Positions 121-7,717 of a DNA stretch of 11,010 nt are shown piece after piece. The notes below the pieces were generated by a model. That model was not told where the DNA came from. It was given only the letters and a program-made list of their open reading frames with translations, and did not search any database. Where the stretch lies: IMG/VR virus record IMGVR_UViG_2681813236_000014, positions 1 through 11,010 of that record; one strand, given 5' to 3'. A program made the translations under genes and the position numbers. The DNA comes from a virus (Duplodnaviria; Heunggongvirae; Uroviricota; Caudoviricetes). Every line of letters starts with the position of its first letter. Position 1 is the first letter of the stretch.

Positions 121-393
121 ATGTCTCATACAATCCGTGATAAACAGAAACTGAAAGCGCGTGCCAGTAAGATTCAGGGCCAGGTCGTGGCGCTCAAGAA
201 AATGCTCGACGAGCCGCACGAATGCGCTGCAGTTTTACAACAGATTGCTGCTATCCGTGGCGCGGTAAACGGTCTGATGCGGGAAGTGATTAAAGGTCAT
301 CTGACGGAACACATCGTTCACCAGGGGGATGAGCTAAAACGTGAAGAAGATCTGGATGTCGTTCTGAAGGTGCTGGATTCATATATCAAATAA
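121..393 (+). CDS. rcnR: RcnR, Ni/Co-responsive transcriptional repressor (RcnR/CsoR/FrmR family), 90 aa
   Basis: Translation [90 protein letters not shown] matches E. coli RcnR as I recall it; the operator motifs upstream are consistent. Confidence 0.92.
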
Positions 394-482
394 TTTATTA
401 ACGCGATTGTAAAACTGCCGTTTTTCCTCGTTTACAACGCGTGCGCTGGACATTACCATCCTCCTCTGCGATTTATCATCGC

Positions 483-534
483 AACCAAACGACTCGGGGT
501 GCCCTTCTGCGTGAAGGCTGAGAAATACCCGTAT
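483..534 (+). promoter_or_regulatory. 5' portion of the thiM TPP (THI-box) riboswitch, truncated by island insertion
   Basis: aaccaaacgactcggggtgcccttctgcgtgaaggctgagaaatacccgtat matches the start of the E. coli thiM leader/aptamer as recalled. The native continuation (CACCUGAUCUGGAUAAUGCCAGCG...) is absent; unrelated AT/GT-rich sequence follows from 535. Confidence 0.7.
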
Positions 535-535
535 T

Positions 536-722
536 TTCTCATTTAGTGTTTTTTGTGGTTCGGGGTTGCTTGTGGTTGTTTATGTATGTATTTGATAAAC
601 AATAAATTATCCTGTTTTCTTGTTTGTTGTTGTTCGTCGTTGTTCGTAGAGCTTCAACAAAATGTGTGGTCAGTTGTGTGGTCAGTTTTTTGAGGCTGGA
701 GGACTGAAAAGAGGATCTGATA
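536..722. repeat. att-proximal arm with short tandem direct repeats (TGTGTGGTCAGT x2 at 663-686; GTTGTTCGT x2 at ~628-646; TTGTGGTT x2 near 555-585)
   Basis: Seen directly. Lies between the insertion junction and the integrase start; this is the typical location of integrase arm-type or IHF sites and of the int promoter. Confidence 0.4.
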
Positions 723-1943
723 GTGGGAAAAGCACTAAACAAACTGAGCGATTCGACGTTAAAAAAATTGGCGGCTGTCCAGGCAGAAAAAGAGCGTTTT
801 TACTCCGACGGGGGCGGGCTGGAGATTAAACACTCAAAGGGCGGCAAATTAACCTGGTATTTCCGGTACCGAACGGGAGGCCGTGAGGTTGCCGCAGAGC
901 GGTTAAAGCTGGGGGCTTACCCTGAATTGTCGCTGAAAGCCGCAAGGGAAAAACGCACACTGTGCCGGGCATGGCTGGCTGAGGGTAAAAACCCCCGTTA
1001 TGAGTTGTGCGCCACAGTACAGGAAGCACTAAAACCCGTTACGGTGAAGGAAGCGATTAACTACTGGCTGGAGGAATACGCGAAGGATAACCGCAAAGAT
1101 TACATAAAGCTGGTGCAGCGTATGGATAAGCACATCATTTGCCATATTGGGGCAATTCCCCTTGATAAGTGTGATACAAGGCAGTGGATCGCATGTTTTG
1201 ACCGCGTACGAAAAAAAGCACCAGTAGCAGCGGGCCATGTCATGCAGACATGCAAACAGGCGCTAAAGTTTTGCCGCAGGCGGCGCTACGCGTTTAGCAA
1301 CGCCCTGGACGATTTGATCGTTACTGATGTGGGTAAGAGAGCAGAAATCCGCGAGAGAGTGCACAGCAACAGCGAACTAAAAGAAATTCTACGCGCTATT
1401 GATGGTGATGTGTTCGCTCCCTATTACAGTGCGTTAATGCGCTTGTTAATTGTGTTCGGGTGCAGAACGGCAGAGATCAGACTTTCAGAGATCAAAGAAT
1501 GGGACCTGAAAGAAATGTTGTGGACAGTGCCAAAAGAGCACAGCAAAACGAAGGTAACAATATTCCGACCTATTCCTGATGGTATTTTGCCGTTCATTCA
1601 GAAGCTGGTGGAGCAAAACGCACACACTGGGTTATTACTCGGCGAACTGAAAAAAGATACCACGGTGGCGCAATATGGACGAAATGCGCATAAGCGGCTT
1701 AAGCAGGAACACTGGACGCTGCATGATTTCCGACACACGTTTACAACTATGCTGAATGATTTAGGTGTCGATCCGCATATCGTGGAGCACATCACAGCGC
1801 ATCAGATGCCAGGTCAGCAAAAAACCTATAACCATTCACGCTATTTGCAGGCGAAACGGGACGCACTGAATCTATGGGTTGAGCGTCTTGATATGATTGC
1901 AGGATATAATGAAAATATTGTGATATTGAGAGGGATACAATGA
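723..1943 (+). CDS. int: Tyrosine recombinase, P4-type integrase (406 aa, GTG start)
   Basis: N-terminal arm-binding pattern (DGGGLEIKHSKGGKLTWYFRYR); catalytic-region motifs GCRTAEI, HDFRHT and a C-terminal Tyr (KTYNHS); RBS AAGAGGA 7 nt upstream; adjacent to the insertion junction. Confidence 0.9.
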   Translation: MGKALNKLSDSTLKKLAAVQAEKERFYSDGGGLEIKHSKGGKLTWYFRYRTGGREVAAERLKLGAYPELSLKAAREKRTLCRAWLAEGKNPRYELCATVQEALKPVTVKEAINYWLEEYAKDNRKDYIKLVQRMDKHIICHIGAIPLDKCDTRQWIACFDRVRKKAPVAAGHVMQTCKQALKFCRRRRYAFSNALDDLIVTDVGKRAEIRERVHSNSELKEILRAIDGDVFAPYYSALMRLLIVFGCRTAEIRLSEIKEWDLKEMLWTVPKEHSKTKVTIFRPIPDGILPFIQKLVEQNAHTGLLLGELKKDTTVAQYGRNAHKRLKQEHWTLHDFRHTFTTMLNDLGVDPHIVEHITAHQMPGQQKTYNHSRYLQAKRDALNLWVERLDMIAGYNENIVILRGIQ

Positions 1944-2794: not shown

Positions 2795-2897
2795 TCATGG
2801 AGAACGATAAATTAGAATAAAGTTTATTTTTCCAATATTGCACCAACTGCTATGGTAAATAAGATGCCCTTGTTCGGTTACGTTCGAGGGTGTTTTT

Positions 2898-3122
2898 ATG
2901 AATCAAAATACACAATTTCAATCACTAACAGATCGCGTAATTCGTGAGGATGAATGTCGTAAGTTAACAGGCGTCAGCCGTACTACACGCTACGAACTGG
3001 AGAAGAAAGGGGGCTTTCCGTCTCGCCGTAATCTTGGGGGGCGTTCTGTAGGCTGGTTGCTTTCCGAAGTTATGGACTGGGTGCAAAGCCGTGACCGCGT
3101 TAATTCAGGTAAGGCAGCGTAA
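2898..3122 (+). CDS. alpA: AlpA-family transcriptional regulator / excisionase-like (74 aa)
   Basis: HTH-containing small protein (LTGVSRTTRYELEKKGGFPSRRNLGGRSVGWLLSEVMDWVQS) typical of AlpA family; RBS GAGGG upstream; standard position after int in P4-like and PICI elements. Confidence 0.8.
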   Translation: MNQNTQFQSLTDRVIREDECRKLTGVSRTTRYELEKKGGFPSRRNLGGRSVGWLLSEVMDWVQSRDRVNSGKAA

Positions 3123-3877: not shown

Positions 3878-3975
3878 CCTTGTTAATGCAAGGTGCAGAA
3901 ACGACGAAACCCCGCACTGTAGGAGCAGTAACGGGGCTTCTAACCACCAACGATAGCAAGATTATCGAGGCAGCT

Positions 3976-4179
3976 ATGAGAAATCATACCATACACCCGC
4001 AAGGGCGGGACTCGTACAACCTGAATAAATACATCTGGCGTTTTATCGCCCTGAGCACCGCACAACCGCGCGTGATTCACATCGTGGCCACCAGCGAACA
4101 GGAAGCACGCCAGCAATCCCCGGCTGGCTGCGTGATGGTATTCGCCGCCCGTATTCGTCAGGGGGTGTGCCATGCCTGA
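3976..4179 (+). CDS. Small protein (67 aa), first gene of the rightward operon; possibly Icd-like cell-division-inhibitor family (weak recollection)
   Basis: First in-frame ATG after the promoter, RBS GAGG; MRNHTIHPQGRDSYNLNKYIWRFIALSTAQPRVIHIVATSEQEARQQSPAGCVMVFAARIRQGVCHA. The rest of the 362-aa ORF-track frame upstream is antisense to the RHH gene and not credible. Confidence 0.5.
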   Translation: MRNHTIHPQGRDSYNLNKYIWRFIALSTAQPRVIHIVATSEQEARQQSPAGCVMVFAARIRQGVCHA

Positions 4180-6620: not shown

Positions 6621-6850
6621 AATAACTGTTCACCACTGTTCACCCCGTCATAAATGTCTTTTATATCATTATATTATAGGGTGAACAGTTATTTATGAAC
6701 TGTTCACCAAACTATTCACTGTTCACCTTTTTGATTGTTTATTGAGCTGCAAGGGTGAACAGTGGTGAACAGTTGGTGAATAGTTTTTGTGAAACTGTTC
6801 ACCCCTTAACATTATGAATTGAAAGAGAAAATAGCAAAAGGTGAACACGT
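6621..6850. repeat. Iteron cluster / putative origin of replication
   Basis: About 10 copies of the 10-mer ACTGTTCACC in both orientations: direct at 6625, 6635, 6699, 6718, 6794; inverted GGTGAACAGT at 6680, 6754, 6764, plus degenerate copies at 6775 and 6840. An AT-rich stretch lies between them (6645-6679). Confidence 0.75.
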
Positions 6851-7003: not shown

Positions 7004-7717
7004 TTAGTTAGTTTTGAAAAATTTATTGAATAACTCTAAGCTTTCAGGATGTATATATTGAGTAGGGTAACTGATACGTTGTGAGCGTCCAATTTTTATT
7101 GTGTTTTTTTTCGTCTTCCCAAAAAATAGATTCTTCCATGTTAAAATGTTTCCGTGATTATATTTATTGTCTTTTAATCGCTTTTCCAAATAACCATCTG
7201 TGATTTTATATTTATGTGGCGGTACATTCCTTGAGTGCTCAATTTTCCGTAATTCTACTTCTAGCATATCTATTAGCTCACCTTTAGGGGTTTTGAGTTG
7301 ATAATTTAGTAAGCGGCAGTATCTGCGTAATTCCCATACAGTTCTATCTAATGTAATAATTTCAAACCCATTAGTATACATGACTTTTTGGAAGTATCTA
7401 TTTGGTCCTTGGTCATTTAGATACTCTATGAAATATATGCTTTTATCACTCAGATCTAGTTTAATATATGGAATATCATTAATTTTTTTAATTCCTGCAA
7501 CAAGATCATGTCCAATATTTTTAACAGGGATTCTATTAAAAATAAGAATGCATTTTATATATTTTTCAATTGCTTGTTGAGACATCCATAAAAATTGGAA
7601 AGGAAGATTGTTTTTAAAGCAAATACGAGCAGTTAGATAATCTTGATCAGCCATGTCTCTGAAAGATCTTTTAGCCGCATTATTCAGAAAAATTTTTTGA
7701 GTATCAGTAAGTTCCAT
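7004..7717 (-). CDS. AT-rich cargo protein with HEPN-like N-terminal domain (237 aa); candidate RNase-type defense/abortive-infection effector
   Basis: RBS AGGAAG; N-terminal helices with HEPN-like pattern (AAKRSFRDMADQDYLTARI...QQAIEKYIKCIL...NIGHDLVAGIKKI); roughly 30% GC by eye versus ~50% in flanks; opposite strand to surrounding island genes. Confidence 0.7.
   Translation of the reverse strand: MELTDTQKIFLNNAAKRSFRDMADQDYLTARICFKNNLPFQFLWMSQQAIEKYIKCILIFNRIPVKNIGHDLVAGIKKINDIPYIKLDLSDKSIYFIEYLNDQGPNRYFQKVMYTNGFEIITLDRTVWELRRYCRLLNYQLKTPKGELIDMLEVELRKIEHSRNVPPHKYKITDGYLEKRLKDNKYNHGNILTWKNLFFGKTKKNTIKIGRSQRISYPTQYIHPESLELFNKFFKTN

Follow-up and report, generated by a model that had tools for sequence, protein, structure and literature searches.

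The segment between positions 535 and 722 of the window (the whole 11,010-nucleotide stretch that was analysed) forms, in the attL of a PICI-type phage satellite, the arm next to int (the P′ arm); the satellite sits in the thiM TPP riboswitch of E. coli. Most likely, the tandem 12-bp repeats of this arm serve as arm-type sites for the satellite integrase and the arrays with a 10-bp period as sites for its AlpA-family protein, in a layout like that of P4. The assignment of 12-mers to Int and of 10-bp arrays to AlpA is likely, drawing on covariation and analogy, and its AlpA part is held with much less confidence. The features concerned, in window coordinates, are as follows.

518–541, no strand assigned: attL core, GAGAAAT / ACCCGTA / TTTTCTC.
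553–577, plus strand: B′, variable and degenerate core-proximal copies with a 10-bp period, including TTGTGGTT twice.
585–597, minus strand: IHF-like site TATCAAATACATA in an AT-rich spacer, one mismatch to WATCAANNNNTTR, recognised by consensus matching only.
620–649, plus strand: B array, TTGTTTGTTG TTGTTCGTCG TTGTTCGTAG, three direct copies with a 10-bp period, including GTTGTTCGT twice; proposed AlpA array.
663–686, plus strand: A pair, TGTGTGGTCAGT twice in a perfect 12-bp tandem; proposed integrase arm-type sites P′1 and P′2.
709–714, plus strand: Shine–Dalgarno sequence AAGAGG of int, 8 nt before the GTG at 723.
723–1943, plus strand: int, a tyrosine integrase with an N-terminal arm-binding domain; GTG start at 723.
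2898–3122, plus strand: alpA, AlpA/Vis-family excisionase and regulator, candidate binder of the B array (Pfam Phage_AlpA, 4.8e-16).

The E. coli gene rcnR (121–393) lies near the start of the window and is followed by the promoter of thiM and then by the 5′ half of its TPP riboswitch. When window 380–760 was compared with 5426 complete E. coli genomes, host similarity ended at base 534 in 5404 of them; within the same set, the match ran across this base in only 72. From 535 onward the DNA belongs to an island of 10–16 kb, which opens with the 188-bp non-coding arm and continues with int. The arm was found in 76 E. coli genomes, with at least two matching places in each, and the block that forms the far arm was likewise found in 76. 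The genome of strain A65EC (NZ_CP182331.1, ~1213049–1228063) has four arm-matching places rather than two, which suggests either two tandem islands at the thiM site or an extra copy of the arm.

A 14-bp block, AGAAATACCCGTAT (521–534), is the same at attL and attR. It was present at both island ends in four of the loci compared (L001, L003, L004 and L005), and nothing else is common to the two junctions. At the core, GAGAAAT and TTTTCTC would constitute an inverted pair of 7-bp core-type half-sites with a 7-bp overlap, ACCCGTA, between them. The window stops short of the right end of its own island; the far arm was taken from the thiM-site elements L001 and L003–L006.

The island splits the TPP aptamer of thiM (window 480–534; L001 11356–11490; L111 506–602). 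With the Rfam TPP model, for which the threshold is 54.3 bits, the intact site reaches 71.2 bits; the halves separated by the insertion reach only 33.3 (attR) and 20.6 (attL). RefSeq annotates no riboswitch at the split aptamer, and thiMD is cut off from its own promoter by the entire island. Salmonella relatives occupy the same riboswitch site, and no mention of insertion into the thiM riboswitch was found in the PICI literature searched. Upstream of rcnR, in host DNA unrelated to the island, there are two copies of TACT-(C/A)C6-AGTA (38–75), which look like the G/C-tract operator sites reported for RcnR.

The original prediction had listed three short repeats in a GT-rich arm, and all three were found in the sequence at 536–722. 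The GT-richness is strong: this segment contains 44% T, 27% G, 19% A and 10% C, and the whole window 26.5% T, 25% G, 28% A and 20% C. The first repeat, TGTGTGGTCAGT, occurs twice head to tail (663–674 and 675–686); the second, GTTGTTCGT, occurs at 629–637 and 639–647, inside an array with a 10-bp period (620–647, 2.8 copies); the third, TTGTGGTT, occurs at 553–560 and 570–577. In 5000 dinucleotide-preserving shuffles of 536–722, the 12-bp tandem of TGTGTGGTCAGT was reached twice (0.04%), while 29% of the shuffled sequences contained an exact 9-mer repeat and 67% an exact 8-mer repeat. The 9-mer and 8-mer repeats are thus not significant from the window sequence alone, and only the 12-mer pair stands out. 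Comparison with relatives rescues the TTGTTCGT array, whose position and period are kept, but not the TTGTGGTT pair as such, since close relatives read TTGTAGTT/TTCGTGAT or TTGTGGTT/TTCGTAGT. While the GT-rich composition and the frequency of 8-mer and 9-mer repeats in shuffles would suit functionless products of low-complexity chance or replication slippage, the rarity of the 12-bp tandem among shuffles, its invariance in diverged arms and the presence of pairs on both arms in six lineages including P4, at a fixed distance in five, leave such an origin with hardly any credibility.

The 12-bp pair is duplicated at the other end of the island. L001 (strain Ecol_224) is identical to the window over 380–760, and its right end carries a 76-bp block ~95% identical to window 620–697 in unchanged orientation. 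In this block a short spacer separates the TTGTTCGT array from the 12-mer pair; ~60 bp beyond it lie AGAAATACCCGTAT and the 3′ half of the riboswitch. The layout of the L001 ends would give a circular attP that reads B array, A pair, ~65 bp, core, ~85 bp, B array, A pair, 36 bp, int. Counted from the first base of the 14-bp core block, the A pair begins 142 bp further on in the P′ arm and 89 bp earlier in the P arm; a repeat that differs from the core is therefore found on both arms less than ~150 bp from the crossover, the far arm being that of L001 and L003–L006 and of all 76 arm-carrying genomes. The far-arm pair has the same orientation in every related element with both ends readable. The distance from pair to pair is 232, 232 and 234 bp in reconstituted attP sites and 233 bp in the contiguous attP of the packaged phage vB_KppS-Ant (51% integrase identity), and this spacing of 232–234 bp is held although the cores are unrelated.

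Among six attL and five attR arms, which are 87–100% identical, the A pair and a few flanking bases are invariant, while the AT-rich segment 581–615 and the TTGTGGTT region vary freely. When three Salmonella elements from the same riboswitch site are included (integrases 67–74% identical), no segment outside the core is better conserved than the pair. Within the 12-mer, the thiM-site elements of E. coli and Salmonella differ at a single place, position 5, which reads T,T, A,A or C,C in the two copies. For the thiM lineage alone, recent duplication or gene conversion could explain the ~95% identity of the arm blocks, which includes the non-motif spacer. A remnant of tandem insertion was rejected as the origin of the far-arm copy: no second core lies ahead of it, and the layout is repeated at the motif level only in L010, L014 and vB_KppS-Ant.

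Relatives were drawn from contigs with integrases 54–74% identical and from one packaged satellite genome at 51%. Every integrase relative examined (50–74% identity) has a 12-bp tandem pair 14–60 bp upstream of int, and their attachment sites include thiM, abgR, cspD/clpS, fis and a Stx-prophage late region. The 12-mer variants encountered are TGAGGTCAGT, TGCGGTCAGT, TGCAGTCAGT, TGTAGTTAAT and TGTATAAACA, with one variant per lineage in both copies. For the islands with both ends available (four at thiM, one at cspD/clpS and one at fis, together with the vB_KppS-Ant attP), the lineage's own variant is paired again on the far arm and occurs nowhere else in loci of 11–30 kb. A degenerate pattern scan of species-representative genomes recovered int-adjacent and far-arm pairs in Shigella, Raoultella, Buttiauxella and Tenebrionibacter. 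It returned ~94 stretches, most of them chance matches outside Enterobacterales, and none outside that order has an integrase downstream. In L012 (9650–11218) an integrase relative (64% identical) with its own 12-bp pair lies beside Stx-prophage lysis and late genes, an arrangement that fits the published helper-embedded PICI type.

The repeat changes with the integrase. Across 16 loci, G or A at position 6 of the site goes with E/Q plus R/K or S plus T/S/M, respectively, at two positions in predicted strands of the arm-binding domain, and G or A at position 11 goes with K or R without exception. As these changes represent about two or three independent evolutionary events, the residue-to-base covariation is only suggestive. 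The site TAGTTAAT is common to L013, L009, L010 and L012, yet the N-domain of L013 is only 61–65% identical to theirs. Taken as a whole, the sites are kept among elements with the same integrase and change with the integrase lineage, few of the changes being independent. Absence of the repeats from relatives with the same integrase had been proposed as the observation that would overturn an arm-site reading; when this was checked, the repeats were present in all of them.

The arm-type or accessory-site reading is upheld by the position of the stretch between the crossover (534) and int, by the duplication of the 12-bp pair on the far arm, by the retention of the pair where spacers vary, by its covariation with the integrase lineage and by its match to the arm-repeat layout of P4. 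The pair could instead be an operator through which AlpA or another island regulator controls int transcription. An operator would suit the location of the pair, 36 bp ahead of the int start, and the binding of direct repeats by AlpA-family proteins; in P4, Vis acts as a repressor of Pint (as cited in PMC7286903). Yet no island gene follows the far-arm pair, the spacing of the pairs across the core is fixed at 232–234 bp, and no copy of the 12-mer occurs at other island promoters. Moreover, the AlpA recognition helices of the window and L010 are near-identical (86% overall), yet their 12-mers differ. We consider an operator very unlikely and retain the pair as the putative integrase sites.

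The B arrays appear to follow a different lineage. A TTGTTCG-like array lies directly upstream of each 12-mer pair on both arms in every lineage, and a degenerate pair follows the core. Tandem Repeats Finder (TRF) assigns the B array of the window a period of 10 and 2.8 copies. The B′ region reads GTTGTTCGTAG or GTGTTCGTGA in close relatives, and the corresponding place in L010 reads GTGTTCGCGG GTGTTCGTGG. The B motif variants TTGTTCC, TGTCCG, TCAGG and GTTCAT are lineage-specific and the same among the arrays of one element. The window and L010 (cspD/clpS) have TTGTTCG in common and AlpA proteins 86% identical, while they differ in the 12-mer and are only 61% identical in the integrase N-domain; P4 and L013 have in common TTGTCCG and the AlpA/Vis helix LSRST. 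The pairings of helix and motif are RTTRY with TGTTCG/A (window, L010, L014), RSCRY with TGTTCC (L009) and (L)SRST with TGTCCG (L013, P4), a small sample of linked genes. The TTGTTCGT array appears to follow the AlpA/Vis excisionase lineage rather than that of the integrase, which makes AlpA the likely binder.

Sites for recombination directionality factors (RDFs) are classically confined to one arm, as for lambda Xis and P2 Cox. The B arrays depart from the one-arm arrangement, since they occur in either arm and also beside the core. They do conform to the usual pattern of excisionase sites, direct repeats one helical turn apart (PMC7498355): such repeats are present in attP, and the element carries an RDF gene. 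The presence on both arms, the direct abutment on the A pairs, the lack of significance of the exact repeats by themselves and the absence of a B motif upstream of alpA in L010 would suit a second class of integrase arm site, or a phased GT-rich spacer that shapes the arm. Against this, the variant appears to go with the AlpA/Vis lineage and not the Int N-domain (window/L010; P4/L013), the 10-bp direct-repeat spacing is the RDF pattern (PMC7498355), and alpA is immediately preceded by a B-like pair in the thiM lineage, as it is in L014, where the pair is inverted. A non-AlpA role of this kind is a possibility of some weight, though clearly the less probable one, and AlpA remains the preferred candidate.

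Directly before the alpA start, CCCTTGTTCGGTTACGTTCGAGGG is followed by a T-run (window 2864–2897). This segment can be described either as two further copies of the motif with a 10-bp period or as an imperfect hairpin with a U-tract. The thiM-type islands keep this segment before alpA; L014 has it inverted, and L010 lacks it.

Candidate sites for a bending protein were found between the pairs and the core. A match comparable to the IHF-like site at 585–597, whose TGAT core is invariant in the alignment, occurs at +152 to +155 from the far-arm pair in the thiM type, in L014 and in phage Ant. A second IHF-like match lies at ~+64, on the other arm; in several lineages such one-mismatch matches keep their offsets on each arm.

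The integrase matches Pfam Arm-DNA-bind_3 (1.9e-17, residues 8–94) and Phage_integrase (8.1e-17), and its N-terminus matches in sequence the solved arm-binding domains 3JTZ and 3JU0. The int start used here is the RefSeq start in L001. The suggestion that the arm holds the int promoter was not supported by a promoter scan, which detected no sigma-70-like promoter in 534–722; a promoter and terminator scan of 380–900 gave neither an int promoter nor a terminator. The sole promoter-like site is the host thiM promoter (431–459, TTTACA-17-TACCAT), which now faces int through the severed riboswitch and the arm. Since no terminator is predicted between this promoter and int, host-driven transcription of int is possible in the integrated state.

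That the repeats are themselves int promoter elements (-35/-10 hexamers, an UP element or activator sites) is suggested by their position immediately upstream of int, and P4 has a plausible TTGAAA-18-CATAAT that shares bases with its last B copy and with its first arm repeat. However, besides the outcome of the scan, in which only the host site at 431–459 was recovered, the 12-mer contains no -10-like hexamer and its far-arm copy precedes no gene. Promoter elements are an unlikely account of the repeats, and the att-arm interpretation is kept.

Other features of the arm were also considered and discarded. An Rfam scan of the window gave nothing real in the arm. A hairpin on the int strand, in which GGTCAGT pairs with the region of the int Shine–Dalgarno sequence, has a modest z-score of -2.2, and an RNA explanation was dropped because the downstream sequence of the hairpin is not conserved in the Salmonella relatives. 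Two small open reading frames, 539–742 (minus strand) and 662–829 (plus strand), were rejected as genes; they are absent from RefSeq, and relatives show indels and variation that is not codon-like.

Downstream of int, Pfam identifies DUF6387, the AlpA-family gene, a D5-type primase, a HEPN open reading frame, a ClpP-protease/major-capsid fusion and DUF1441. Full capsid-forming PICIs carry the same int/att module at the same site, together with capsid, protease, portal, connector, HNH and terminase genes. One integrase/att module is thus associated with two satellite bodies: the full capsid-forming PICI, including TerS/TerL (L002, L004, L005), and the smaller island with the ClpP-protease/capsid fusion and DUF1441 (window, L001, L003). 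To judge from where it lies and how large it is, the O157:H7 version probably corresponds to the published prototype EcCIEDL933. The right half of the window is mosaic, and the closest islands sit at other chromosomal positions, so that other att sites are likely for them. Just past the primase gene (6653–6832) there are dense direct and inverted copies of GTGAACAG/CTGTTCAC, which look like replication-origin iterons; a plant microRNA match in the same segment was spurious. The HEPN-domain open reading frame (7004–7717, minus strand) is encoded opposite to its neighbours, the replication module on one side and the capsid module on the other, and is possibly an accessory or defence gene of the island.

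These results support a model in which the two TGTGTGGTCAGT copies at 663–686 are bound by the N-terminal Arm-DNA-bind_3 domain of the integrase. With the identical pair of the far arm, which precedes the core by ~90 bp, and with the attP pairs 232 bp apart, four arm sites would be available for an integrase tetramer. The IHF-like sites between the pairs and the core would bend the arms back, such that the C-terminal domains could hold GAGAAAT and TTTTCTC. The TTGTTCGT arrays beside each pair, and the degenerate copy at the core, would most likely be coated by the Vis-like AlpA, conferring directionality. Both kinds of site lie 36–100 bp upstream of the int start, and Int and AlpA probably damp int expression, as in P4 and KplE1; because no sigma-70 promoter was found in the arm, this autoregulatory step has no mapped promoter to act on.

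More speculatively, and with doubt prevailing, enterobacterial PICIs, cf-PICIs and P4 might be built on one rigid att design, with 12-bp pairs ~233 bp apart, a residue-to-base code and, unlike lambda, excisionase arrays on both arms; int of the integrated island might also be driven by the captured host thiM promoter through the severed riboswitch. The proposed code may be one in which E/Q plus R/K as against S plus T/S reads G or A at position 6, and K as against R does so at position 11. If this were true, the specificity of arm interaction sites would be predictable and swappable from sequence.

No description of arm sites was found in the PICI literature searched. The analysis maps the att arm base by base for satellites of a group widespread in E. 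coli and Salmonella; it provides direct targets for EMSA and mutagenesis and a way to delimit such islands from sequence. For studies of specificity it also offers a small collection of naturally occurring integrase variants with their matching arm sites. The understanding of site-specific recombination is unchanged; the biology is ordinary, and what is unusual is how easily it can be seen here.

In lambda, attP contains the arm-type sites P1, P2 and P′1–P′3 and sites for Xis, IHF and Fis. As in lambda, the integrase would be heterobivalent, with arm sites distinct from core sites and tandem direct arm sites on the P′ arm; the placing of bending-protein sites between arms and core and of RDF sites as direct repeats is also alike (PMC2951348, PMC7498355). 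In contrast to lambda, the arm-binding fold belongs to the Arm-DNA-bind_3 family, the layout is a symmetric 2+2, and the putative RDF arrays occupy both arms instead of the P arm only.

In KplE1 (CPS-53), arm-type and TorI sites in attL overlap the intS promoter, and IntS and TorI both repress intS (PMC2951348). The two elements are alike in that int lies next to attL, so that arm-type and RDF sites overlap the region upstream of int. They differ in that the KplE1 promoter was mapped experimentally whereas none is detectable by consensus here, and the site sequences are unrelated.

The closest parallel in layout is P4. PICI integrases and P4 Int have been reported in one clade (PMC10111431), and in P4 both Int and Vis act as repressors of Pint (as cited in PMC7286903). 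The P4 record NC_001609 (Pierson & Kahn 1987) annotates an 'attP arm sequence repeat' as 12-bp tandem pairs at 3942–3965 and 4151–4174, with the core at 4078–4097. The layouts are homologous: P4, like the window, L001, L010, L014 and vB_KppS-Ant, against which this was checked, has two head-to-tail 12-bp pairs, one on either side of the core, which point the same way as int. The pair nearer to int lies shortly before the int start (~15 bp in P4), and TGTCC-like motifs ~10 bp apart lie directly upstream of this pair. The two integrases share both domains, and between Vis and the AlpA of the window there is 45% identity. Unlike the window, P4 has the repeat GGGGGCAYAWWW in place of TGTGTGGTCAGT, and the two are unrelated; the window 12-mer likewise bears no likeness to P4 GGGGGCAT. 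The P4 pairs are 209 bp apart, as against 232 bp here, and an extra inverted copy of the repeat covers the P4 int start, none being seen in the window. The integrases are only 22% identical over their full length, and the target is a tRNA-Leu gene in P4 and the thiM riboswitch here. By analogy, the element would work like P4 yet is its distant relative.
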